A stretch of DNA of 56,753 nt from Chiloscyllium plagiosum (Eukaryota), in NCBI RefSeq assembly GCF_004010195.1, contig NC_057718.1:1992229-2048981 (forward strand), read 5' to 3'. A model generated the notes under the pieces. That model made no database searches, was not told where the DNA came from, and worked only from the letters and a program-made list of their open reading frames with translations. How positions within the stretch are numbered: position 1 is the stretch's first letter; each line of letters opens with the position of its first letter. The position numbers and the translations under genes are program-made. This document shows positions 2,674-49,059 of this stretch, in pieces.

Positions 2674-3597
2674 TTGAGGATAGGAGTTGGGATATCATGT
2701 TGAAGTTGTATTAGATACTGGGGAGGCTCCTTCTGGAGTACAGTACTGTGTCCAATTCTGGTGTCCTTGTTATAGGAAGGATATGATTAAACTGGATAGG
2801 GTTCAGAAGAGATTGACCAGGATGTTGCCAGGAATGGCGAGTTTGAGATATGAGGAGAGACTGGATAGGCTGGGACTTCCTTCACTGGCAGTGTAGGAGG
2901 TTGAGGACTGACCTTATAGGGGTTTGTAAAATCATACGGGAAACAGATAAGGTGACTAGCCAAGGGTCTTTTTCCCTAGGGTGGGGGAGTTGAAAACCAG
3001 GGGACATATTTCTAAGGCGAGAGGGGAAAGTTTTAAAAAGGATTTGAAGGACAACCTCTTTACACAGAGAGGTGTTTGTGTTTGGAGTCTACTGCTAGAG
3101 GAACTGGTGGATGCAGATACAGTTACAACACTTAAAAGATCTGGATAGGCACATGAATAGGAAAGGGAGGGGAAGGATATGGCCACGCACAGGCAGGTGG
3201 GAAACGTTCAGTTTGGGATTGTGGTCAGCACGGACTGGTTGGACCGAAGGGTCTGTTTCTGAGCTGTTTGACTCTGAGTGAATCTCTGCAATACTCCCTC
3301 GAAAGCAAGTTGATCTTTTCTCGATTTCCTGATACTAAAGCAATCTGGGGATATGGGGATAGTACGGAGGGAGAAATAGTATTGTTACAGCAGATCAGCT
3401 GTGAGCGTATTGAATGGCAGAGCAGGCCTGAGGGGCTGAATGGCCTACTCCTGCTCCTGTTCCCATGAGCATGCTGAAAGGTATCTAAATTCACCATCAG
3501 CGTGCTCCCATTTCAGAGGGTGCCTTTCCTAAACAGTGAATGAAACCTTTCTGTGTCAGCTTCAGCACCTGATGATGCTCCTTTTCCACACATTCAG

Positions 3598-3741
3598 CCA
3601 ATACAAGCAGCTCCCACAGCCAACCTGGACCGCTCGAATGACACCATCTATCCTCAGGTCATGGAGCTGGTTAAGTCGGTGCTACACCTGAAGAACCAGG
3701 TCTATCAGCTCCCCTGTGAAGAGTACATCAACCTGGTGAAG
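3598..3741 (+). CDS. PTK2B: PTK2B exon, start of FAT domain (PIQAAPTANLDRSNDTIYPQVMELVKSVLHLKNQVYQLPCEEYINLVK)
   Basis: The PTANLDR...VMELV motif of the FAK/Pyk2 FAT domain. cag/gtaagc boundaries, 144 nt, phase 0-0. Confidence 0.95.
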
Positions 3742-4254
3742 GTAAGCTGGTTAACCTCGGGCAGGGGGCGATGGTCCCCGTCTTGAAGCCATCATAAAAC
3801 AAAGAAAAAGCACAGCAAGATCCCATAATAGTGCCAGGGCACGTTTTCCATCCAGTGCAAAAGGCAGATGAAGTTTAATTTGATCCCATCTGAAAGACCC
3901 TGCCAGTGTTGGGTCTGAACCTGTCAATCATCCTGGTCAGAGGACAACAGCAATCATTGAGTGAAGAAGCTTCCTGTCTATTAATGTGTCGGGGATTATG
4001 TTTATAAATATCGTGCTGCTTCAGGCTCTGACCCTCAGGGTTTTAGTCAAATTGAGTCGTGTCATGGTTGTAATTCTGGAATCAGGAGCGGCTCATCATC
4101 CAGAGGACATCAGCTCAAATCCCAACAAAGGCAGTTGTAAAAGTTCAGGATAGAAGCAAGTTCTGTACTGAAACAACAAATGCTGAAGATCACAGCGGGT
4201 CAGGCAGCATCCAAGGAGAGAGAGCAAGCTAACATCATCCAGACTGGAAACATT

Positions 4255-9780: not shown

Positions 9781-10443
9781 CAGTCCAGTAAATCACATCT
9801 GCACTCTCAGCAAGATTGGATCATTTTCTATGAATGATCAGAAGCCTTTCCCCCTCCGTTACTGAATTTCACCACATGTAGCTAAAATAATACACAAATC
9901 AGAATCATCATGTTATTTGGTTGAAGACTCCCACAGCCTGAAGGCTGAGTTACAGTGTAATTTACAGAGAAAATCATAAATAACAGAAGCAAGCAATTTA
10001 GCAAGAACAGGGAAGTGGTGGATGGGATGTTAATAGAAATGCTGAATTAAAATGGAATGACGATTATAATACAATTCACCATTCCTACATACTGACACTG
10101 AAGTCCATGTAATTGTTGGCTGCTCAGAGCTTTGAATCCTTTGTAACTCAGGAGGAGGCCATTCGGCCCATTGAACTTGCTGCAGCTCTTCCATTGAGCA
10201 TCATTCCCCAGCCAATCTCCGGCCTTTCCCCCAACCCCTCACACATCATTTCCATCCAGCTAACTCTCCAATGTCCTCTTGAATGAGAGACCTAAAGCAG
10301 GCCTGACGTATCTGATTGCTGCTCGTAATCTAACCCCTGGAGTCCAGGCATTGTTCTTGTCAACTGATGTGCCCCCTCCCAGATCTGCTGACAGTGCTGC
10401 AGGTCAGCTGTAACCAGGGTTTCTTCATCTTGTTTCTGTTCAG

Positions 10444-10659
10444 ATCGAGGGGACACAGAGGCTCCTGAACAAAGACCTAGCTGAGCTGATAAACAAGATG
10501 AAACTGGCCCAGCAGAATGCGGTGACCTCGCTGAGTGAGGAGTGTAAGAAGCAGATGTTGACAGCTGCCCACACTCTGGCCGTAGACTCCAAGAACCTTC
10601 TGGATGCTGTGGACCAGGCCAGGGTTCGGGCAGGACAAGCCAAACCAGTCCCGAACTGA
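10444..10659 (+). CDS. PTK2B: PTK2B terminal coding exon (IEGTQRLLNKDLAELINKMKLAQQNAVTSLSEECKKQMLTAAHTLAVDSKNLLDAVDQARVRAGQAKPVPN*)
   Basis: Near-identical to the Pyk2 C-terminus. IEGTQ and QQNAVTSLSEEC distinguish Pyk2 from FAK. Acceptor cag at 10441-10443, stop TGA at 10657-10659. Confidence 0.97.
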   Translation: MEGTQRLLNKDLAELINKMKLAQQNAVTSLSEECKKQMLTAAHTLAVDSKNLLDAVDQARVRAGQAKPVPN

Positions 10660-14125: not shown

Positions 14126-15515
14126 GCCAGCACTCCCTCAGCACTGACCCTCTGACAATGCAGCACTCCCTCAGCACTGACCCACCGACAGTTCCGCACT
14201 CCCTCAGCACTGACCCTCTGACAGTGCGGCATTCCCTCGGCACTGACTCTCTGACAGTGCCCCCTCCCTCGGCACTGACCCTCTGACAGTGCAGCACTCC
14301 CTCAGCATTGACCCTCCCACAGTGCAGCACTCTCTCTGCACTGACCCTCTGACAGTTTGGCACTCCCTCAGTACTGACCCTCCGACAGTGAGGCACTCCC
14401 TCAGTACTGACCCTCCGACAGTGCGGTGCTCTCTCAGTACTGACCCTCCGGCAGTGCGGCCCTCCCTTAGTACTGACCCTGCAACAGTGCGGCGCTCCCT
14501 CAGTACCGACCCTCTGACAGTGCGGTGCTCCCTCAGCACTGATCCTACGACAGTGCGGCGCTCCCTCAGCACTGACCCTGCGACAGTGCGGCGCTCCCTC
14601 AATGCTGACCCTCCGACAGTGTGACACTCCCTCAGCACAGACCTTCCGACAGTACGGCACGCCCTGAGTACTGACCCTCTGACAGTGCTGCACTCTCGCA
14701 GCATTGACCCTCCGACAGTGCCCACTCCTTCAGTACTGACCCTCTGAGAGTGCGGCTCTCCCTCAGTACTGACCCTCCGACAGTGCACCTCTCCCTCAGT
14801 ACTGATCCTCTGACAGTGCAGCACTCCCTCAGTACTGACCCTCTGACAGTGCGACACTCCCTCAGCACTGACCCTCCAACAGTGCGGCACTCCCTTAGCA
14901 CTGACGCTCCGACAGTGTGGCACTCCTTCAGCACTGACCCTCCGAGAGTGCGGCTCTCCCTCAGTACTGATCCTCCGACAGTGCGACACTCCCTCAGCAC
15001 TGACCCTCCGAGAGTGCGGCACTGCCTCAGCACTGACCCTCCAACAGTGCGGCACTCCCTCAGCACTGACCCTCCGGAAGTGCGACACTCCCGCAGCACT
15101 GACCCTCCAACAGTGCGGCACTCCTTCAGCACTGACCCTCCGACAGTGCGGCTCTCCCTCAGTACTGATCCTCTGACAGTGCAGCACTCCCTCAGTACTG
15201 ACCCTCTGACAGTGCGGCACTCCCTCAGCACTGACCCTCCGACAGTGTGGCACTCCCTCAGCACTGACCCTCTGACAGTGCGGCACCCCCTGAGCACTGA
15301 CCCTCCGACAGTGCGGCACCTCCTCAGCACTGACCCTCCGACAGTGCGGCACTCCCTCAGCACTGACCCTCTGACAGTGAGGCACTCCCTCAGTACTGAC
15401 CCTCCGACAGTGCGGCACTCCCTCAGCACTGACCCTCTGACAGTGCCGCACCCCCTCAGCACTGACCCTCTGATAGTGCCGCACTCCCTCAGCACTGACC
15501 CTCTGACAGTGAGGC
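14126..15515. repeat. 33-bp minisatellite (CACTCCCTCAGCACTGACCCTCCGACAGTGCGG)n, about 42 copies
   Basis: Clear 33-nt period, which produces the repetitive 11-aa ORFs on both strands. Confidence 0.95.
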
Positions 15516-15929
15516 CCTCCTTTCGTGCTGCAGTGCCCATTGCTCTGTGATCTGATGTTGGGCTCCCGTAAAGCGTGAGAGTCTCCAGGGTTCTGTGTAT
15601 CTCCAATCGAATGTTTTATGATGGCCATGGGTTTGTCGTAACTGAGCTGGGCAGCAATTGAATTGGCTCCCTTTCTCATAGTGTTGCAGTTAGGAGGTGG
15701 GTGAGAGGAGGGGGTCACTGCCACATTACGGTGTTGCCATTGTCCTTGACAGTTGATGGTAAAGTTGGAGCCAGTGAGTGGGAGTGTGTTTGCGGTGTGG
15801 GGTCAGACCATGATGACCCCCTCCCTGTGCAGTGTTAACATTATTCAGCGTTGGGTGGAACAGTGCATTCTTGTTCACAGTTCAATTCTGAGTGAGTGCA
15901 AACTCAGCAGTTTGTTTTGGGGAACAGTA

Positions 15930-25463: not shown

Positions 25464-25524
25464 ATGTTTGCAATTTTTCACCCATGGCTTGCAGGTCTAG
25501 TTCTGGGCCTCTACTCTTCAATGG
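25464..25524 (+). CDS. Ig-superfamily receptor, leader exon (MFAIFHPWLAGLVLGLYSSM-G)
   Basis: aacATG start, 20 mostly hydrophobic codons, and a phase-1 donor G|gtaagt in frame with the V1 exon. This is the typical IgSF leader arrangement. Confidence 0.8.
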
Positions 25525-25702: not shown

Positions 25703-26039
25703 GTCCAGCGCCCCACTTTTCTACTTATTACATCCCCACTTATCGAGGTGTCTTTTGTAGTCTGATCATTGTGTTTAAAGGATTAAGATTGCTTTGACCT
25801 CAAGGGAGAATGCAGCATCAGGTACCACACTGAGCCAGGAGAGTCAGTGAGGCCTGCCCTGGTGTGCAGTAGGTATCTACTCAATGACAAGGTACACGCA
25901 GCTGTATGGCACCATCATCCACACGCTCTCCTCCAAAACACTCACACTCATATCAGTGTGAGCAGGGGGTGTGAACACAGAGGGTGAGCTGTCAGTGTGA
26001 ACACGAGGTGTGAGCAGGGGATGTGAGCAGGAGGGGTAT

Positions 26040-26462
26040 GCTGGTTGGGGAATGGATGAATGATGGGGTTTGCTGATTGGTGATTGGATTAGTGATGACG
26101 TTAGCTGGTTGGGGAATGAATGAATGATGGCATCTGCTGGTTGGTGATTGGATGAGTGATGGGGTACTCTTGTTGGGGTATCAATGAATGATGAGGTACA
26201 CTGATTGGTGACTGATGGATGAGTGATGAGGTTAGCTGGTTGGGGAATGGATGAATGATGGTGTATGCTGATTGGTAATTGGATCAGTGATGACGTTAGC
26301 TGATTGGGGAATGGATGAATGATGGGGTATGCTGGTTGGTGATTGGATGAGTGATGAGGTTAGCTGGTTGGGGAATGGATGAATGATGGGGTATGCTGGT
26401 TGGTGATTGGATCAGTGATGACGTTAGCTGGTTGGGGAATGGATGAATGATGGGGTATTCTG
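26040..26462. repeat. Minisatellite of alternating 32-bp A and B units (64-bp higher-order repeat) in intron 1 of the Ig receptor
   Basis: gctggttggggaatggatgaatgatggggtat alternates with gctggttggtgattggatcagtgatgacgtta. Confidence 0.85.
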
Positions 26463-27611: not shown

Positions 27612-27965
27612 GTCCTGAGGCACATCCCATTCTCGCTCAGTTCCCAAAAAATGTGAAGATACCAGAGGGTGGAACTGTGCAGATTCAGTGCCGTTTGGAG
27701 AGAAGCTTCAGAAATAACACAGTGGAAAATTACACTGTCCACTGGTACCACCCTGGAAACAAGACACGTACCTTATTGACTCATTATGTTAATGGAGTTA
27801 CTTACCGATCGAGAGAATTCTCTGAACGGTTTCAGCTTTCCAGGAATGTGTCCAGTAACAGCTACATTCTGACCATCAGAGAGCTGCAGCTCAATGACAC
27901 CAATACCTACATCTGTGGGATTTGGGGGAACGTCTTTGGGAAAGGGACTTGGCTGAATGTGACCA
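27612..27965 (+). CDS. Ig-superfamily receptor, V-set domain 1 with germline-joined J motif
   Basis: EGGTVQIQC...VHWY...RFQLSRNVSSNSYILTIRELQLNDTNTYICGIW...FGKGTWLNV. cag/gtaagt boundaries, 354 nt, phase 1-1. Confidence 0.93.
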
Positions 27966-30204: not shown

Positions 30205-30549
30205 GTGCAAATGTCCCAGTCCTTCTCCAGTGTCCGAGCCTGGAACATGTCACTGAGGGTCACACTGTCCGGTTACAGTGCACCGTGAGGAATGCTACTG
30301 TGACACACACTGATGTTCACTGGTACCGGGAACAACCAGGGAATAACACAGAGTGGGTTTTAATACATGATGTGAGGAACAACACACAATGGAGCCCAGG
30401 ATTTACTGAGCGATTCCAGTCTTCCAGACACCCCTCCAATAACAGCTTCATTCTGACCATCACAAATGTGCAGCCCAGTGACACTGGGATCTATTTCTGT
30501 AAAGTGTGGGGAGACATCAGTGGGAATGGAACCCAGCTGAATGTAACAG
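30205..30549 (+). CDS. Ig-superfamily receptor, V-set domain 2 with J-like motif
   Basis: EGHTVRLQC...VHWYREQPG...RFQSSR...FILTITNVQPSDTGIYFCKVW...SGNGTQLNV. aag/gtaagt boundaries, 345 nt, phase 1-1. Confidence 0.93.
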
Positions 30550-30674
30550 GTAAGTCTTGTTTACACAATCTGCATCAGGCCTCACATTGTGAGAGACAGT
30601 TGGAAAATATCCAATATTTGAACTAAGTTATTGTGAAGCTGTACTTGCTCACATCCCTCTCTCTCTGTTTGCAG

Positions 30675-30803
30675 TTCCTGCAGTGGGAATGAACAGCGAG
30701 CTGTGGAGTGTCTGGATCAGTGTGGGGGCTGTACTGGGAATTATTCTCGTCGCTGGAGCTGCTATTTGCTTCTGTATCAGACACACTCGGAAACTGTCAT
30801 CCT
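30675..30803 (+). CDS. Ig-superfamily receptor, transmembrane exon (VPAVGMNSELWSVWISVGAVLGIILVAGAAICFCIRHTRKLSS)
   Basis: Hydrophobic helix followed by a basic stop-transfer RHTRK. Acceptor tttgcag (alternative in-frame acceptor giving a start at 30684), donor gtaggt, phase 1-1. Confidence 0.88.
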
Positions 30804-31026
30804 GTAGGTGGAAATCAATCTTTCGCTGAAACAATATTAACAAGGAATACTCTGGTTTGAATTAATGGAACAATGTATTGAAGTTAAATGATAGTAAACA
30901 CAGAATCAGATACAATTTGAAATGTTTATTGCAGTCCTCCAGTGATGACTTCAGTCTGTCTGTGCATCATTGGAAAATAATTCAGAATCATTTCTTTAAT
31001 TCTGCCCTCAATGCTGTCTTTTGTAG

Positions 31027-31100
31027 CTTCTTCCCATGGTACTGGAGAACACAGCCTGATGCTGGAATATGAAAACATTTCTGCTTTTAGAAACACAAGG
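31027..31100 (+). CDS. Ig-superfamily receptor, cytoplasmic exon 1 (SSSHGTGEHSLMLEYENISAFRNTR)
   Basis: ttttgtag/gtaagt boundaries, phase 1 to 0. Contains LEYENI. Confidence 0.82.
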
Positions 31101-31704
31101 GTAAGTGAAAGCAGGCTGTCAGTTTCCAGCTTTTTTATTGCTGCTGCTTCAGTGTCAAAGATGTAAGATGAACATTTTATTGACCTTTGGCATCACCTGG
31201 GTGATACCTCGCTCCTGGGTGTGAATGTCAGCTGTGAGTCTCTGCATCAGTGTGTCCAGTCTTCCCTCAGTAATGTCAGGGCTGTGCTGGGGTTTCAAAC
31301 AGGCACATACCCCTGTCAACATCCTGCCAGTTACCACTGGCCAAAGACTCAACTGGACACACTGTCTCAATACTCTGACTACAAGACCAGGTCAGAGGCT
31401 TGGAATACTGCTGTGAGTAACTCCCCTCCCATCACCCCAACGCCTGTCCATATAAAGTCATATACATCTACAGCACAAAGGCAGGCCATTCAGTCCATCA
31501 TATCCACACTAGTCAAAAACAACCACCTCACCGTTCTAATCCCATTGTCCAGCTCTTGGTCTGTAGCCTGGTGTGTCTCTGTATCACAAGTGCACATCTA
31601 AATACCTCTCCAATGTGATGGGGGTTTCTGCCATCCCCATCCCCACAGACAGCGAGTTCCTGATCCCTACCAATCTCTCGAGTGAAAAAGATTTTCTCAC
31701 ATCT

Positions 31705-32222
31705 GGGGAGGTGATGGCCTACTGGTGTTATCGCTTGACTCTTCAACCAGAAACCGTGAATAATGTTCTGGGGACCTCGGTTCGAACCCAGCCACGGCAG
31801 ATGGTGGAATTTGAAATCTGGAATTAAGAGTCTCATGATGACCATGAAACCATTGTCAATTGTCAGAAAAGTCCATCTGGCTCGCTAATGTCCTTTAGAG
31901 AAGGAAACTGCCATCCTTATCTGGTCTGGCCTACATGTGACTCCAGACCAGTATTGTGGTTGACTTTCATCTGTCCTCTGAAATGACCTAGCAAGGCGCT
32001 CAGTTGTATCAATTGCTTGGAAATATATTCCTGTTCCTTCACAATCATTGGGCCAAAATCCTGGAATTCCCTCCCTAAGGCCATTGTGGGTCAACCCACA
32101 GCACATGGACTGCAGTGATTCAAGAAGGCAGCTCACCCCCACCTTCTCAAGGGGCAACTAGGGACGGCCTATCAATGCTGCTCCAGACAGCAACGCCCAA
32201 GTCCCACAAATGAATAAAAAAA
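31705..32222 (+). mobile_element. tRNA-derived SINE with a LINE-derived tail, nested in an old minus-strand CR1 fragment (about 31455-33150)
   Basis: ggtgatggcctactgg...ggttcgaaccc boxes, and tail caagaaggcagctcacc...aatgaataaaaaaa. Confidence 0.7.
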
Positions 32223-33299
32223 CAAAATCTCCTCAAAACCTCCTGTCCCTTACTTTAAATCTATAACCCAGTCATTAATTACTCTATCAACAGGAAAAGC
32301 TCCTTCCTGTGTACCCTATCTACCCCCGTCATAATGTTATACATCTCAGTCAGGCTGTTCTGCTCAAAGGAAAACAAACCCAGTCTTTCCAATCTCTCTT
32401 CAAAACTGAAACTCTCCAGCCCAGGCAATATCCTGGTAAATCTCCCTCTGCACCCTCTCCAGTGCTATCACATCCCTCCTACTGCATCTTACTGACCAGC
32501 GCTCTTACATTTAAGTCTCAGTCATTTCTATAAACCACAAACAGCAAGGGCCCCAACCCTATTCCCTGTGTGACTCCAGGTTTCCAGTTCCAAAGTTACC
32601 CCTCAATAATCACCCTCTGCTTCCTGCCACTCCATTAGTTATGGATCGGATATGCCAAATGTCCTTGGATCCCCATGGGCATTAACCTTCACAATAGTCT
32701 CCATGTGGGACCTTATCAAACGTCTTGCTGGAGTCCAAGCAGAGTACATCAAAAGCACTGTCCCATCCCCACACCTGGTCCCCTCTTCAATCTAGCTGGT
32801 CAGGCACGGCCTCCCCTTAATAAAACCATGATGTCTGTGCTTGATTGATCCCTGCCTCACCAAGTAAGGGTTCATTCAATCTCTCAGAATTGCTCCCCAT
32901 CGGTTCCCCATCACTGAGGCTAGATTGACAAGCCTGTAGTTTCCTGATTTATCCCTTTCTCCTTCCTTGAATAATGGAACCACATTAGCTCTCCTTCAGT
33001 CCTCTGGCACTTCTCCTGTAGCCAGGCAGGAATTGCCAGTGTCCTGACTATTTTCCCCCATTGTCTCACTCAACAGCCTGGGACCCATTTCTTCCAGCTC
33101 GGAGATTTATCGACTTTTAAATCTGCCAGACCACTCAGAACCTCCCCTCTGTCTTTAATAGTGTCACTGTCCTTCTCCCTGATTACTGTACCCACACTGT
33201 TCCTCTCACTAGGTACACACAATATTCAGTTCAAACCTGACCTACATCATCTGGCTCCATGCACAAATTACTATGTGGCACTTAATGGCCCCTACTCTT

Positions 33300-33705
33300 T
33301 CCCTCATCTTCCACCTTGGACCCTCCAACCCTCCACTGTATCAATGTGGATTTCACCAGTTTACTCATTTCCCCTCCCCCCACACCTTATCCCAGATCCA
33401 ACTTTCCAACTCGACACCATCCTCTTGACCTGTCCATCTTCTTTCTAACCTATCCATTCGACCTCCTCCCTGACCTATCACCCCCACCTTTATCTACCTA
33501 TTGCATTCCCAGCTACCTTCCCTCCAGCCCCACCCTCTCCCATTTATCTCCCAGCCCCCCAGGCTCCCTCTTACATTCCTGATGAAGGTCTTACTCTCGA
33601 AAAGGTGACTCTCCTGCTCCTCGGATGCTGCCTGACCTGCTGTGCTTTTCCAGCACCACACTTTTGACTCTGATCTCCAGCATCTGCAATCCTCACTCTT
33701 TCCCA
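33300..33705 (+). mobile_element. Penelope-like element 3' end (GIY-YIG C-terminus remnant, pyrimidine-rich UTR, degenerate hammerhead terminus)
   Basis: atcttccaccttggaccctccaacc...atcaatgtggatttc, then cctgatgaagg...gatgctgcctgacctgctg...ccagcatctgca. Confidence 0.7.
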
Positions 33706-34409
33706 CTCTTTCCATATCCCTTTTAGCTCTGTTAATCTCTTTTTCAAGTTCCCTCTAGGGATTCAGCTGTTTTGAGCTCTCAGTATCTGCCATAATCCAC
33801 CTTTTTTCTGTTAACCCAAAGCTGTATATCCCTCAATGTCCATCTTCACAGGATTTAATGGTCCTACCCTTTTTGTTTACAAGATACAAGTCAGGAGTGT
33901 GCTGGAATATCCCCCTCTTGCCCTGGATGGGGGCAGCTCCAACAACACAAGAAATTTGACACCATCCAGGACAAAGCAACCTGCTTGATTGACATCACAT
34001 CCTCAACCATCCACTCCCTCCACCACCTGGCTAGCTGATAGATCAATAAAGACAACGTGGCAGATGCTTAAGGGGCCATTTTAGTATACCCAGAATAATT
34101 ATATTCCTACCATAAAGGACCAATACACAACCTGTAGTTAACTACACAAGTTAAGGAAAACTTCAAACTGAAGGGCAAAGCATTTAACTATACACAGGTG
34201 AGTGACAGGTTAGATCATTGACCAGAATATAATGTCAGAGAATGACTAAAAGGTTAATGAGAAGGAAGAAATTAGACTATGGGAGAAAGCTAGCTGGAAA
34301 TGTAAAAATGGAGGTACAAACAGGAAAAGTGTAAACAAATGGATGTTAGTCTTCGAGACAGAGTGAGAATGTTGGCCAATAGTAGGTAAGGATATGGCAA
34401 ATGAAATGG

Positions 34410-35135
34410 GTAAAGTTAAAACTCACACAACACCAGGTTATAGTCCAACAGGTTTATTTGGAAGCACTAGCTTTCATAGCGCTGCTCCTTCACCAGGGAG
34501 TTTGTGGGGCAGGATCACAGAACCCAGAATTTATAGTAAAAGGTCAAAGTGTCATACCAACTGATGCAATGCCATATAAGAGGTGAATTTACATTTGCAG
34601 ATTTGTATTTGCAGATACATTCTATTTTGTTCAAAAAGCACAATCTGTAGGCTGTGAGTCCATGTGATATTTTATAAATTCCTACTTTGGAAATAGAACC
34701 AGTCTGGCTCCAGGTTAGGATACAGACAGACTCTAACCTCACACCTTTAATGGACTGTCTGAGAAGACGTCACTTTTTTTTAAAACCTTAAGTTGTCTCC
34801 GGACTGTGACTTGAAAGGAACTCTGGGATTTACATATTAATGAATCGAAACCTGCATCCCCATTCCAAGTGAGTAAAGACTTCACAGCCATCCAAGTTTG
34901 TTCAATACATCGCATCAGTTGTATGAATATAGATCTAATTGGTATCAACCTGGAGACCATCTGATTGGGACTTTTCATGCTAAATTCTGTGTCCTATGAC
35001 TCTGCCCCACTAGCCACCTGACAAAGGAGCAGTTCTCCAAAGGATTGTGCTTCCAAATAAACCTGGTGGGCTATAACCTGGTGTTGTGTGATTTTTAACT
35101 TTGTCCACCCCAGTCCAACACTGGCTCCTCCAAAT
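34410..35135. mobile_element. Penelope-like terminal inverted element (family 2)
   Basis: aaagttaaaactcacacaacaccaggttatag at the left end and ctataacctggtgttgtgtgatttttaacttt at the right end. Confidence 0.7.
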
Positions 35136-35670
35136 CACAAATGAAATGAAATGAACGAATATGTTGCTTGTACTTTCACCACTGGGGATACATAACTATA
35201 TTCCAGCTCCAAACAGGAATCAGACTGGACTCAAACTGTTAACTGTTTCTCTCTCCACAGGAGCTACCAGACCTGCTGAGTTTCTCTAGCAATTTCTTTG
35301 TTATTTTAGATTTGGAGCATCCTCAGTATTTTGTTTTTACCTTTGTTTGATCTATTGGTGGTAATATTTATATCTGGTTAACATTTTTTGTGTCAAGTTC
35401 TTCAATACCCTTTTCTTGAAAGACTTAGTCACAATCCTCCAAATCTTCCAACCAGGTGAAAAATCAGACAAGGTTGTAATTTCTGTGATAGACTTACAAG
35501 TTGTCAACGATCACTGCAAACCAGTGAAGGGGATTGTACACGAGGCAGTGTGTAAGCTGCAGGGTCATGGCGAGATGTTGTGTTTTCTCAGTTTTACAAT
35601 CTTACTGTCCCTTTGGAGTTTCCACCCTTCAGTAATTTATATCATACCATTTCATTCCATTTGGTTACAG

Positions 35671-35712
35671 AAATCGGATGATCTCCAAGTTGATCCCGAT
35701 CAGATCTATGTG
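35671..35712 (+). CDS. Ig-superfamily receptor, cytoplasmic exon 2 (KSDDLQVDPDQIYV)
   Basis: ttacag/gtaagg boundaries, 42 nt, phase 0-0. Acidic residues precede the Tyr. Confidence 0.7.
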
Positions 35713-35810
35713 GTAAGGAACCAAAACACCAGTCAGTTCCATCATTCCAAGCAACAGTTCCGTCAAAAAATTAATTTACATTCTTGTTTTCTCTCCTTTC
35801 TGTTAATAAG

Positions 35811-35849
35811 AACATGCCTCACATTGTTAAACTCCTTCCTGATGGCTGA
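35811..35849 (+). CDS. Ig-superfamily receptor, cytoplasmic exon 3 (NMPHIVKLLPDG*); the exon continues to a donor after 35853
   Basis: Long pyrimidine tract ending aag, completes YVNM. TGA at 35847-35849 followed by ccag|gtaagt. Confidence 0.6.
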   Translation, partial: NMPHIVKLLPDG

Positions 35850-35929
35850 CCAGGTAAGTTCCTGTTAATTCCAGGCTGCATTCATGTGTGAGCTAAGGGA
35901 ATATCTTTTACATTCAATTTATAACAATG

Positions 35930-37012: not shown

Positions 37013-37803
37013 GTAAACAGTGGGGAGATGGTAACGCGGCTGAGCAGGGTGTCGATTTACTGGTGAACTGGGGAGGCACATAACAGATAGAATTTAAGGC
37101 GGGGGATTGTGGTGTGAAGTGGAGATGTGGATAAATAGCAGAACTTTAAAGTGGGGGAGGCATGGGTGGGGGAGTAGGGACAGAGGAACCTGAGGCTGTT
37201 ACAGGTCAACCACGGTTACTGATTCCTGCTCCACACTTTGTTCTCAACTATTCCTAGAAACTGCTCTTCACCCCCTCCCCTCTGCACCTCTCCATTTCTC
37301 CCTCCTCTCTCACTCGCGCCTCTCACCATAACTCCGACTTTCTCCCCCACCCCCTCCCCCTCCTCCCTCCATCATCCCCCATCCGTACCTCTCCACCTCT
37401 GCTTTTCTCCACCCTCCCCTCCTTTACCTCTCCATGTCTCCAGCTCTTCAGTTTGCGTGCAGTGTTGGTCTCCTTACACAAGAAAGGACACACTTTGAGA
37501 CTGTAAAGGTCACAAGGGGAGAAAGCAGAAATACAGCATTGAGCGAGAGAATTGGCCATGATCAGATTGATTGGTGGAACAAGCTTGATGGGCCGAATGG
37601 CCTACTCCTGCTCCTAGTTTCTATGTTTCCACATTTCCATCTCTCCATTACCTCATCGTGCTCTCTCTTCACCATTTTACACCTGTCCCGGTGAATGTTT
37701 TGCCATGTTAAAGGGGGCTATATAAATGGAAGTTAACTTGTTTTTGAAATCAATATCCATGCAGCTCACCGGCCCTTAAATTGTTCCTATTTGTGTTGAA
37801 CAG

Positions 37804-37923
37804 ACAATGACCATGAGCTTCAATACTGCACCAATCCTGAACAGCAATTCTCCAACCACGAGAAGAATCTCCTCGGTCATTTCCCTGCTCCTCAGCAGCA
37901 GCCTGTACCTCACCAGGACTTAG
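37804..37923 (+). other. Candidate distal cytoplasmic exon (DNDHELQYCTNPEQQ...HQDL in phase 1)
   Basis: Pyrimidine-rich tract ending aacag, open frame with a Tyr, weak donor ag|gtttat. Confidence 0.35.
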
Positions 37924-39006
37924 GTTTATCTGTAATTGATGGACAGATTGGATCAAACACTCCTTTCCCACATTTCTGTGAATCTAATCCTAACCTGATG
38001 TCCGTGATGATCCTAAATGACTTCTCCAGACCGAGAAACAAATCCTTCAAACATACAGATCAATGCTGAGAGCCCAGTGAGAGTCACCACAATCATTTCT
38101 GGGCATTATACCCTCTGGAAGCACCCTGGAGTGGGTGTGGGGTGGCAGGGTGGGGGTGGGGGGGTGGGGTGGGGCTGAAGATTCACCAGAGTAATGACAG
38201 CATGACAAGGATAAATTATGAGGATAGGTTCTGTAAATCAGGTCTGTATTCCTTTGAGTTGGAATGGTTGAGGGGGTGATTTGNNNNNNNNNNNNNNNNN
38301 NNNNNNNNNNNNNNNNNNNNNNNNNNNNNNNNNNNNNNNNNNNNNNNNNNNNNNNNNNNNNNNNNNNNNNNNNNNNNNNNNNNNNNNNNNNNNNNNNNNN
38401 NNNNNNNNNNNNNNNNNNNNNNNNNNNNNNNNNNNNNNNNNNNNNNNNNNNNNNNNNNNNNNNNNNNNNNNNNNNNNNNNNNNNNNNNNNNNNNNNNNNN
38501 NNNNNNNNNNNNNNNNNNNNNNNNNNNNNNNNNNNNNNNNNNNNNNNNNNNNNNNNNNNNNNNNNNNNNNNNNNNNNNNNNNNNNNNNNNNNNNNNNNNN
38601 NNNNNNNNNNNNNNNNNNNNNNNNNNNNNNNNNNNNNNNNNNNNNNNNNNNNNNNNNNNNNNNNNNNNNNNNNNNNNNNNNNNNNNNNNNNNNNNNNNNN
38701 NNNNNTGAGTGGGTGATTTGGGTGAGTGGGTGATTTGGGTGAGATGTTCCAGGTGATTCAGGGATACATAGGAATTACTAAACTGACTGAATCTTTAAAT
38801 GTGACCAATGAGAGATGAGGAGGGTGTATCTCTCTCCAGAGGGGGACACTTCTACATCAATATCTCACCACGGGCTGGCAGGTTCCTCAGTCGAAGCAAT
38901 TAAATTTCAGACAAACCCAACAGTTTCTCCTCTGGCTTTCTGCTTGTGTTCTGGTCATCATCGTCCCTCGTACATGCTGTGACCAAAATGTAACCTCTTT
39001 GTCCAG

Positions 39007-45449: not shown

Positions 45450-46730
45450 GGCTTATGGACAAGAAAAATGCTGTTGCATTGCTATTATTGTCATGTTTGA
45501 AAGCTTGAAGAGACTCCAGACGACATTAAAAAAATTAAGAAAAGTGCAGTTCAATGCAAAATTACATGTTTTAAGGTCATCAGTATTTACTTATTGCAGA
45601 TTCATTAAATCTGTAAGGAAACTAGAGGAGACAACATTGAAGCTATAGGTTTGAAACAGTGTTCATGTAATAAGAATGAATAATCTCATTAAGAAGAAAT
45701 GGCTGGAGAATTAATAAGTCATAAAGATTTAATGTCAGTGATGGGCAAACAGAATACATGATTGGACACCTTGAAGAAAACAATCTTAAGATGCAATGTT
45801 GTTTTAAAATCAAGTACTAAATCTTAAGTTGAATAAGTAAATATATTATTGCATTCAATAGGTCCAACAGCAGATGATGTTATAGATTGGCAAAATGTAA
45901 AAGAGGGCACATATACTTTGAAGAGATTCTAACAGGTTTTGATAATTACTTCAACCTGAGGACAAGTAAAGTCTTTGAAATTAGAAGATTTGACAGAAGA
46001 GCTCATCATCCAAGGAATTATGACCATGGATCTTTGAAATAGATTTTGATTTAGTATTATTGTTGAATCTTTGTCAGACTTATTATAGTCTAAAGAAGAT
46101 TTAAATTTAGAGAAAGTGATTCAAATTATGTGGAAACCAGATATCAGGAAGATTCATAGACAGCCCCTGAGAGGAGAAGGACAATGCTGTCACTGGAGGG
46201 TAACAAAATCCAGCAGAGAATGTACAAACACTATGGACAGATGTGGCAAGCCACAGGAACGGTGTAGGCTGTACGGATACAGTGGGGTAAAAACAATGAC
46301 TGCAGATACTGGAAACCAGATTCTGGATCAGTGGTGCTGGAAGATACAGTGGTCAGTGTCAGTGCTATGGAACAAAAAAAAATGCCTCGCAGATACAAGC
46401 AGTGCCCAGCCATGACCAAACAATGCTACCTCTGTAATTGAGGTTTTGAATGTTGCTGTCCCATCAGTTCAAATACCATGATGAAAGGAACCGAGATTAC
46501 AGCTGGCAGTGATAAAACCATACACTCCAGGTGAAAGAACTCTCCAGAGTACGGGCTAGCTATGAGTGACACAACAGCACAAAGGCAACGGAAGAGAATT
46601 GAAAATGCTTACATAATTCACAATCAACACCTCTCCTTTGAGTCTGAAAATACCTTGATCTCAACATCCTTAAATAGCAGGAGGAGTTCACTTATGAGGT
46701 TAGAAACAGTTGTCCAACCAGTCAAACAGC
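45450..46730 (+). mobile_element. Possible highly degraded Gypsy-like LTR retrotransposon relic
   Basis: A-rich stretch with fragments reading EELII, DLNLEKVIQ and RCGK, reminiscent of gag. No intact ORF or LTR pair seen. Confidence 0.3.
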
Positions 46731-47509
46731 CAGAGGAAACAGATCCTGAGGTCAAGAAGGAGCAGTTTAACCCACGTGACCCCATTATTCCACCCTGTTT
46801 ATCTACTCTTCCAGCTTCTTCCATTGGACAAAAGATACAAACATTTGAAAACATGTACCAACAGATTCAGACTTATGAATGGATCTCTCTTATATTTGAG
46901 CTGATCTTTCTCTGCACCTTCTCTGTAGCTGTAACATTATATTCTGCATTCTGTTCCATTTCCCTGGTGTATGGTATGATTTATCTGGATTGCACAAAAT
47001 ACAATACTTTCAACTGTATCTCAATACATTTGATAGTAACACATCAAATCAAATCAAATGATGAGTGTTTAACAGAAGGCAGTAACACAGTCTGCTGAAT
47101 AAGGTGTTATAGCCTGTTACCAGATAACAGGTTGAGACAAGTTCAAGAGAAATATTGCAAGTCTTTCAAAGAAACATTTCCAGCCTCAGTGACAACAACA
47201 AAGTTGAGAAGTGATAGCCCATTCCAGGAATGGAATAGAATAGCAATTCATTGTCACGTGTAGTTTGACCAAAACAAATACAGTGAAAATGTCAGCCCAG
47301 ATTTCTGTAAAACTACACGAGACAATAAATTACTATTCTTTTCCATTCCAGGAATGGACTATTATTTCTCAACACCTGTATTAATGATAGAAGTCAGAGA
47401 TAGGAAGAAAAAAGTAAAAATAAAACATTTCATCGCAGATCAATTTAAGTTCTGGGGAGGTTGATGAAGATGATGATCAGTGGAAATTCGGAAGCTGCTG
47501 CCAAAGAGA

Positions 47510-48865
47510 ACCCCACACTGGGCCGCACCCTCCACACCAGGCCAGGACCCTCCATACCAGGCCGGAACCCTCCACACCAGGCCAGGACCCTCCACACCAG
47601 GCCAGGACCCCCCACACCAGGCCGCGACCACCCACACCGGGCTGGGACCACCCCACACCAGGCCAGGATCCTCCACACCAGGCCAGGACCCTCCACACCA
47701 GGCCAGGACCCCCCACACAAGGCCGCGACCACCCACACCGGGCTGGGACCCCCCACACCAGGCCAGGACCCTCCACACCAGGCCAGGACACTCCACACCA
47801 GGCCAGGACCCTCCACACCAGGCCAGGATGCTCCACACCAGGCCGGGACCTCCCACACCAGGCCTGGACCCCTCACTCCAGGCCAGGACGCCCCACACCA
47901 GGCCGGGACCCTCCACACCATGCCGGGACCCCCCACACCAGGCCGGGGCCCCCCACACTAGGCCGTGACGCCCCACACCAGGCCAAGACGCCCCACACCA
48001 GGGCAGGACCCTCCACACCAGGCCGGGACCCCCCACACCGGACTGGGAACCCCACACCAGGCTGGGACCCCCCACACCAGGCCAGGATCCTCCACACCAG
48101 GCCAGGCCAGGACGCTCCACAGCAGGCCAGGACCCTCCATACCGGTCTGGGACCCTCCACACCAGGCCAGGACGCTCCACAGCAGGCCAGGACCCTCCAT
48201 ACCGGTCTGGGACCCTCCACACCAGGCCAGGACGCTCCACAGCAGGCCAGGACCCTCCATACCGGTCTGGGACCCTCCACACCAGGCCCAGGACGCCCAC
48301 AGCAGGCCAGGACCCTCCATACCGGGCTGGGACCCTCCACACCAGGCCAGGACGCTCCACACCAGGCCAGGACCCTCCACACTGGGCTGGGATCCTCCAC
48401 ACCAGGCCGGGACCCCCCACACCAGGCCAGGACGCCCCACACCAGGCCAGGACCCTCCACACCAGGCCAAGACCCTCCACACCAGTCCAGGTCCCTCCAC
48501 ATCAGGCCGGAACCCTCCACACCAGGCTGGGACTCTCCGCACCAGGCCAGGACCCTCCACACCAGGCCAGGACCCTCCACACCAGGCCAAGACCCTCCAC
48601 ACTGGGCTGGGGCTCACCACACCAGGTCGACACCCTCCACACCAGGCCGGGACTCCTCACACCAGGCTGGGATTCTCCACACCAGGCCGGGACCCTCCAC
48701 ACCAGGCCGGGACCCTCCACACCAGGCCGGGACCCTCCACACCAGGCTGGGACCCTCCACACCAGGCCGGGACCCTCCACACCAGGCCGGGACCCTCCAC
48801 ACCAGGCCGGGATCCTCCACACCAGGCCGGGCCCCTCCACACCAGGCTGGGACCTTCCACTTTGG
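47510..48865. repeat. 20-bp GC-rich minisatellite (CCACACCAGGCCAGGACCCT)n with a local 60-bp higher-order block
   Basis: 20-nt period, with three near-identical 60-mers at about 48105-48290. Confidence 0.95.
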
Positions 48866-49059
48866 GCTTGAAGCCTCCTGTTCACTGAGCCCAGGCCTGG
48901 AGAAGACACCTTCCACTGAAGACGTTATCAAAGGCAAGATAATAAATGGAAACATTTAGATAAAGGAGAGAAAGGAAAATGTAAGAAGCAGATGGAGTAG
49001 ACAAGTTCCTGGGCTGAGCAGCCCCCAGGCTGTACTGCTACCCACTGCCATGTTGCTTG

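Follow-up and report, generated by a model that had tools for sequence, protein, structure and literature searches.

DNAM-1 (CD226) has two variable (V)-type immunoglobulin (Ig) domains, and receptors of the CD28/ICOS family have a single V domain with a MYPPPY-like ligand loop. Two well-described tails depend on a YxN core: in the conserved D/E-I-Y-V/M-N motif of DNAM-1 the Asn mediates Grb2 binding and a change at +3 is tolerated (PMC4647266), and in the Ig tail tyrosine (ITT) motifs of membrane IgG and IgE the YxN is conserved and YxxM is not, the YxNM of membrane IgG having bound Grb2-family adaptors only (PMC4263166). Teleost NILT receptors form a multigene family whose members have one or more V domains with an extra CX3C, CX6C or CX7C cysteine pair (PMC3022915), and in classical subunits that bear immunoreceptor tyrosine-based activation motifs (ITAMs) an exon border splits the first tyrosine module (PMC4536121). 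In sharks, UrIg2 combines a joined V and J (VJ) domain with nine C1 domains and is linked to the antigen-receptor complex (PMC12227049). Here we describe a receptor gene of the bamboo shark Chiloscyllium plagiosum (LOC122553190) located in a 56,753-nt stretch of genomic DNA (the window; contig NC_057718.1, positions 1,992,229 to 2,048,981), and compare it with these systems.

With moderate confidence, we favour the reading that the product of this gene is a type I receptor, bearing two V-type Ig domains and an uncharged transmembrane (TM) helix, which would signal by itself through Grb2-family adaptors bound to two phosphorylated YxN sites, in an ITT-like manner as DNAM-1 does. The gene was modeled on the + strand with canonical AG/GT borders as eight exons (leader, V, V, TM, three small tail exons and a 3' untranslated region (3'UTR) exon; Table 1) separated by introns of phases 1,1,1,1,0,0,1. 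Its 347-aa product matches NCBI XP_043552721.1 (P0055) letter for letter. Both V-set domains end in a J-like G-x-G-T-x-L-x-V, and the TM helix contains no K, R, D or E between E262 and R289. The two tail tyrosines are Y311, in LEYENI, and Y334, in a YVNM assembled across a splice junction, where DPDQIYV (35692-35712, + strand) is joined to the NM that starts at 35811. A preliminary description of this stretch had reported both motifs, the split of the second and the absence of charge in the helix, and it was right on all of these and on its coordinates.

The YxN core is what has been kept in other sharks. We compared six orthologues with the same TM and tail type, one protein each, from bamboo, whale, white and basking shark, cloudy catshark and starry smooth-hound (Mustelus), which cover three shark orders (carpet, mackerel and ground sharks). 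All six keep both tyrosines (Y1 and Y2), both +2 Asn residues, an Ile at Y2-1 and the 23-residue spacing, and YxN is present at 12 of 12 tail tyrosine sites. The YxN noted earlier in both motifs is therefore general among these proteins, as are the tyrosines, whose conservation had been proposed as a check. At the first site the two carpet sharks have L-E-Y-E-N-I and the other four P-D-Y-(E/A)-N-I; at the second, Y-V-N-M is confined to bamboo shark and the remaining five have Y-(T/E/M)-N-V. The +3 Met typical of PI3K p85 sites thus occurs in one of six orthologues, and the residue at -2 fits the consensus of an immunoreceptor tyrosine-based inhibitory motif (ITIM) at Y1 in two and at Y2 in three. 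LEYENI and YVNM are paired in C. plagiosum alone (1/6), and this comparison does not support a CD28-like PI3K site and an ITIM as a conserved pair. To gauge chance, 1773 tyrosines in six-frame translations of the window were scored: the ITIM consensus fitted 129, YxxM 48, YxN 47 and YxNM 3. A lone ITIM match is weak evidence because the consensus fits so many of these tyrosines, and both YxN sites are taken as real because they are conserved across orthologues. As far as the alignment can tell, the conserved feature of the tail is a pair of putative Grb2-type YxN sites. An ITAM of the form YxxL/I-x6-8-YxxL/I is absent from the six YxN proteins, and a tail-based homologue search found P0055 and P0069 only, among 37 candidates.

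Past Y2+3 the residues vary in sequence and length (3-10 aa) among the six orthologues, and the distal tail seems unconstrained in the sequences compared. Exon 7 of C. plagiosum may be frameshifted after N-M-P: its other frame gives T-P-S-stop, and most orthologues end P-S-(Q/R)-stop.

If the two sites work as proposed, ligand binding by the V domains would cluster the receptor, a Src- or Syk-family kinase would phosphorylate Y311 and Y334, and the SH2 domains of Grb2, GRAP or GADS would dock at both phosphotyrosines. The output would be costimulatory or amplifying, beside the ITAM and ITIM members of the same family.

The closest likeness is to DNAM-1 and the membrane IgG/IgE ITT, which share the I-Y-V/M-N core with a conserved YxN and a varying +3 (PMC4647266, PMC4263166); the uncharged TM is a further likeness to DNAM-1, as are the two V-type domains. 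Unlike DNAM-1, the receptor has two YxN sites rather than one and V domains that end J-like, and orthology to CD226 is not borne out by the ectodomain, whose best matches are the shark family and then Ig light-chain-type V regions. With CD28/ICOS it shares the YxNM string (in C. plagiosum) and putatively self-contained tyrosine signaling, but it has two V domains, no MYPPPY-like loop, no PxxP anywhere in the protein and a +3 Met that is not conserved; the YxNM likeness to CD28 is a motif coincidence, not family membership. NILT paired receptors, and clusters of paired Ig receptors more broadly, are similar in being multigene, in having V domain(s), ITAMs or ITIMs in their own tails, phase-1 Ig exons and phase-0 tail introns (for NILT, PMC3022915). 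The extra cysteine pair of NILT is absent here, and the shark family differs from them in its J-like motif and in a third, twin-YxN tail class. Shark UrIg, UrIg2 and NCR3 likewise have V and J-like sequence joined in one elasmobranch exon. Unlike UrIg and UrIg2, the receptor carries no C1 domains: two V-set domains are all that precedes its uncharged TM, and its gene has a FAK-family gene as a neighbour. The main text of the UrIg2 paper makes no mention of ITAM, ITIM or PTK2B (PMC12227049). The exon border within the first tyrosine module is shared with the classical ITAM subunits CD3, FcRgamma, DAP12 and CD79 (PMC4536121), but the receptor lacks their second YxxL/I and acidic TM residue, the full ITAM being found in paralogues only, and it also differs from adaptor-coupled activating receptors in having no charged residue inside its TM helix. 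By the features tested, the receptor would work as an ITT-like receptor and is not a member of the CD28, DNAM-1, NILT or UrIg groups.

A search with the second V domain (V2) gave 109 longer proteins out of 131 candidates, 108 of them named shark or ray and one without a species name. A crude motif sort of these 109 rows, which include many isoforms and are not gene counts, found ends of ITIM or immunoreceptor tyrosine-based switch motif (ITSM) type in 39, an ITAM in 21, and two YxN but no ITAM in 6; a further 18 were classed as other or truncated, and in the last 25 no TM was detected. A charged residue was present in the best TM window of only one of the 84 TM-bearing homologues. All nine C. 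plagiosum rows are consistent with one chromosome, and the V exons within the window are two only. A wider search with the first V domain (V1), in which names were looked up for 15 of 129 new rows, brought in Callorhinchus milii proteins whose V domains are similar, one of them also having a similar TM start. The nearest single-domain relatives outside the family among those looked up were Ig light-chain-type V proteins of whale shark (38% identity) and coelacanth, antibody fragments ran throughout the matches listed (60) in a PDB sequence search, and Atlas neighbours were generic V-set proteins such as CD7, JAML and CD226, which serve as leads only. On these comparisons the gene is one of a family of cartilaginous-fish receptors that have joined VJ domains and predicted ITAM, ITIM/ITSM or twin-YxN tails; the family is present in sharks and rays and probably in chimaeras. 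Literature searches of mainly open-access papers, by topic (titles and abstract openings among those listed) and by six gene or protein identifiers, found no description of this family. A related single-V protein of Chiloscyllium (P0131 / P0260, LOC122552556) has no obvious TM and ends in two Y-A-N motifs; it may be an isoform or a neighbour.

Within the family, the twin-YxN proteins form one clade (100/100) with or without the trait-bearing exon, and when that exon is removed this clade joins the ITAM type that shares the same TM (100/99). The ITIM/ITSM members form a separate clade with different tails. ITAM-type members were found in rays, sawshark, sevengill, horn shark, carpet sharks and catshark, and the twin-YxN type only in carpet, mackerel and ground sharks. 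In the alignment the counterpart of Y334 is the tyrosine that opens the ITAM of the paralogues (e.g. T-Y-M|A-L-Q-x6-Y-S-E-L), and in the window a phase-0 intron falls directly after Y+1 of this module. Paralogue forms without a 14-residue block resume exactly at Y+2 (P0015 vs. P0062; P0029 vs. P0031), and the missing block has the same length and border as exon 6; these paralogue borders are implied from predicted proteins, some from different gene copies, rather than from genomic DNA. A motif split by a splice junction is thus the apparent ordinary layout of the family's ITAMs, as of classical ITAMs, and was likely inherited from an ITAM-bearing relative. An upstream YxN is present in 16 of 16 ITAM-type paralogue sequences, in 15 of them at the Y311 position (some are isoforms or near copies), and because these paralogues carry it Y311 appears to be inherited rather than a special ITIM.

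At Y2 the +2 residue is Asn in the YxN group and A, T or P in the ITAM paralogues, and there is a good probability that this second site is a remodelled ITAM. In such a change the ancestral exon ending at Y+1 would have been kept, and the exon supplying x-L-x7-YxxL would have been replaced by a small exon starting with N-V. A derived origin of the twin-YxN form is the simpler reading, with the direction of change left unproven by the approximately unbiased (AU) test discussed below. P0031 (Scyliorhinus canicula) carries the 14-residue tail block as a tandem repeat, and the junction alone creates a new YxN, Y-T|N-L; repeats of this kind are a possible route to such motifs. Four carpet-shark paralogues (P0003, P0018, P0066 and P0070) combine an ITIM-class TM with an ITAM-type end, which suggests tail-exon shuffling within the family.

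Several points weigh against Grb2-type signaling by a former ITAM site. The six orthologues are few and amount to three closely related pairs, and five of the six have one ITIM-consensus match at either tyrosine. Each of the 12 sites has a hydrophobic residue (I, V or M) at +3, a pattern that is also compatible with binding of SHP-type partners or sorting adaptors. In CD28, NKG2D and IgG, Met at +3 confers direct binding of p85 (PMC4647266), which supports p85 binding here; on IgG the two sources disagree (PMC4647266 vs. PMC4263166), and direct PI3K p85 binding at YVNM could occur in C. plagiosum only. Nesting of the YxN clade inside the ITAM group is not forced, as sister groups were not rejected (AU test, p = 0.186), and the splice forms are all NCBI predictions, with indirect RNA support from contig arithmetic.

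The ITIM-consensus matches would suit a mainly inhibitory tail, in which one tyrosine acts as an ITIM for SHP-1/2 or SHIP, directly or via Grb2, and the ITIM-fitting residue has moved between sites across sharks. We consider this unlikely. The (I/L/V/S)xYxx(I/L/V) match lies at Y1 in the two carpet sharks and at Y2 in white shark, basking shark and cloudy catshark, the tyrosine spacing could take a tandem-SH2 phosphatase, and a skip isoform of white shark also reads L-I-Y-E-T-L. However, the -2 residue is conserved at neither site and Mustelus has no match, whereas Asn at +2 is invariant; the consensus is frequent among random tyrosines, as counted above, and the family's own ITIM/ITSM members lie in another clade with other tails. 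There is an even smaller chance that the tail is a sorting signal or a relaxed ITAM relic of an internalising or decoy receptor that does not signal. I, V or M at +3 fits a YxxPhi adaptor-complex signal, and this residue class is found at every site; the unconstrained distal tail, probably frameshifted in C. plagiosum, is in keeping with it. Yet Asn at +2 is not needed for sorting, and it is both invariant and newly fixed at Y2.

The preliminary description had suggested that LEYENI, by recruiting SHP, and YVNM, by recruiting PI3K, form a built-in switch that skipping of the small exons could tune, and this we regard as quite improbable. C. plagiosum does carry both motifs, a +3 Met confers p85 binding in CD28-type motifs (PMC4647266), and the 35712->35811 join (phase 0) gives YV|NM where 35712->37804 would give YV|TM, as had been predicted. 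Skip isoforms are also present in NCBI annotation: one of white shark omits exon 7 and reads YE|TL in place of YE|NV, and one of whale shark omits both small exons and loses Y2. However, neither the Met nor the combination is shared by any other orthologue, the two species skip differently and their skip-form tails are not conserved, and no skip isoform is listed for the C. plagiosum protein cluster (1 member). Homology between the tail of whale-shark isoform X1 and the last exon of the window is spread over several frames, and the frame of the window contains stops. Because the frames shift and stops are present, the last exon behaves as 3'UTR, and because its frame is not conserved between whale shark and the window a functional YVTM isoform is doubtful. 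Regulated, functional rewriting of the motif by skipping is therefore unlikely. What stands of the earlier proposal is that skipping can change the motif on paper and that the receptor has conserved tyrosine motifs of its own below an uncharged TM; a costimulatory/inhibitory switch as a conserved design does not. Signaling through paired YxN sites remains our preferred reading.

The splice junctions were compared with four of 22 listed runs, all of them contig sets of presumed RNA origin. Contigs of organism A show zero differences on V2 (30300-30461) and on the last exon; the runs with the X3 and X5 records come from organism B, a relative at ~95% identity. Two contigs look spliced: X3 record 24 starts on the last exon at 37802 and X5 record 32 at 37801, and each extends 318 letters upstream of 37804. 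Exons 4-7 account for 288 of these, which leaves 30 in the V2 exon (73 if exon 7 is left out), and 30 is the expected graph-branch overlap for an assumed assembly word of 31. The 2-3 letter overhang matches exon 7, which ends in CAG, and does not match exon 6, which ends in GTG. These two spanning contigs best fit the inclusion of exon 7, which is a further point against the switch. The depth bin that holds only exon 6 has a value of 1.22, exactly that of a 10.4-deep X5 record over 42 nt. No contig joint across 35712->35811 (YV|NM) was seen directly, the 15 listed of 2660 joints all being repeat-derived. A second, deeper contig set (X1, X3, X5; 30215-30803) differs from the window at ~5% of TM-exon and ~11% of V2 positions, which suggests that a close paralogue sharing this TM type lies outside the window and is expressed at a higher level.

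AG acceptors lie directly before 31027, 35671, 35811 and 37804, and GT donors directly after 31100, 35712 and 35853 (+ strand). The LEYENI frame depends on the TM-exon donor at 30803, a dependence that the preliminary description does not mention. An alternative donor at 30807 shifts the frame so that both motifs are lost; it was rejected, as the NCBI model and contig depth (8.57 observed vs. 8.59 predicted for 30803 and 9.40 for 30807) favour 30803. The TGA stop at 35847-35849 is 4 nt ahead of the last junction, and a stop so near the last junction would spare the mRNA from nonsense-mediated decay. Read-through of this stop into the last exon, where a Y-C-T-N string is in frame, was discarded, as 0 orthologues continue in this way. 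An origin of exon 7 as a duplicate of exon 6 was unsupported, the nucleotide alignment score being reached by 799 of 2000 shuffles. At the position of Cys148 in V2 aligned homologues mostly have Ser, and the ectodomain carries 12 N-glycosylation sequons.

Table 1. Features of the window, in window coordinates.
Feature	Position	Strand	Basis
Exon 1: start codon and leader peptide, 61 nt coding, phase 1	25464..25524	+	Model identical to P0055
Exon 2: distal V-set Ig domain, J-like end within the exon (joined VJ)	27612..27965	+	Pfam V-set 1.8e-16; J motif at residue 129
Exon 3: proximal V-set Ig domain, joined VJ, extra Cys148	30205..30549	+	Pfam V-set 8.5e-23
Exon 4: short stalk, uncharged TM helix with GxxxG, basic stop-transfer	30675..30803	+	Exon model
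Exon 5, 74 nt: first tail tyrosine Y311 in LEYENI (31062-31079)	31027..31100	+	Exon model; YxN common to ITAM-bearing paralogues
Exon 6, 42 nt, phase 0/0: 14 residues ending I-Y334-V	35671..35712	+	Matches the 14-residue block ending at first ITAM tyrosine +1 of paralogues
Exon 7, 43 nt: supplies N-M	35811..35853	+	Exon model; N-V in 5/6 orthologues
Last exon: 3'UTR in the main isoform; read as T-M... with exon 7 skipped	37804..38145 (3' end provisional)	+	Start of spliced-looking contigs
Last exons of a FAK-family kinase	3544-3783, 10414-10656	+	Pfam Focal_AT 8e-12, 1.3e-30
187-codon open frame, non-repetitive look	46535-47095	+	No Pfam family, no usable Atlas match
Tandem-repeat arrays with long repetitive open frames	1-670, ~14200-15800, ~25980-26460, ~47450-48900

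Six assembly gaps interrupt the shark genomic DNA of the window, whose introns are rich in repeat fragments resembling long and short interspersed nuclear elements. The FAK-family kinase gene, probably closer to PTK2B/Pyk2, shares the strand of the receptor gene and is located ~15 kb upstream of it.

As a motif this is nothing unusual; its family context matters more and deserves more attention. Taken as a whole, and only tentatively, the comparisons point to an undescribed paired-receptor family of cartilaginous fish, built of germline-joined, Ig-light-chain-like VJ domains and comprising ITAM, ITIM/ITSM and Grb2-docking members, in which a new small exon in galeomorph sharks would have converted the first tyrosine of the ITAM into a costimulatory site like that of DNAM-1, with a motif that would be retuned when that exon is skipped. 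If true, this would be a traceable change from an ITAM to a costimulatory motif by exon exchange at a conserved Y-x|x-L border, and the family a testable example of tyrosine-motif swapping at a conserved exon border. Non-rearranging VJ genes have been sought as relatives of the antigen-receptor ancestor (PMC12227049). Sharks and rays have in this family a multigene set of such genes with opposing signaling tails and no useful annotation, and its members are candidate innate or natural killer-type paired receptors of cartilaginous fish.

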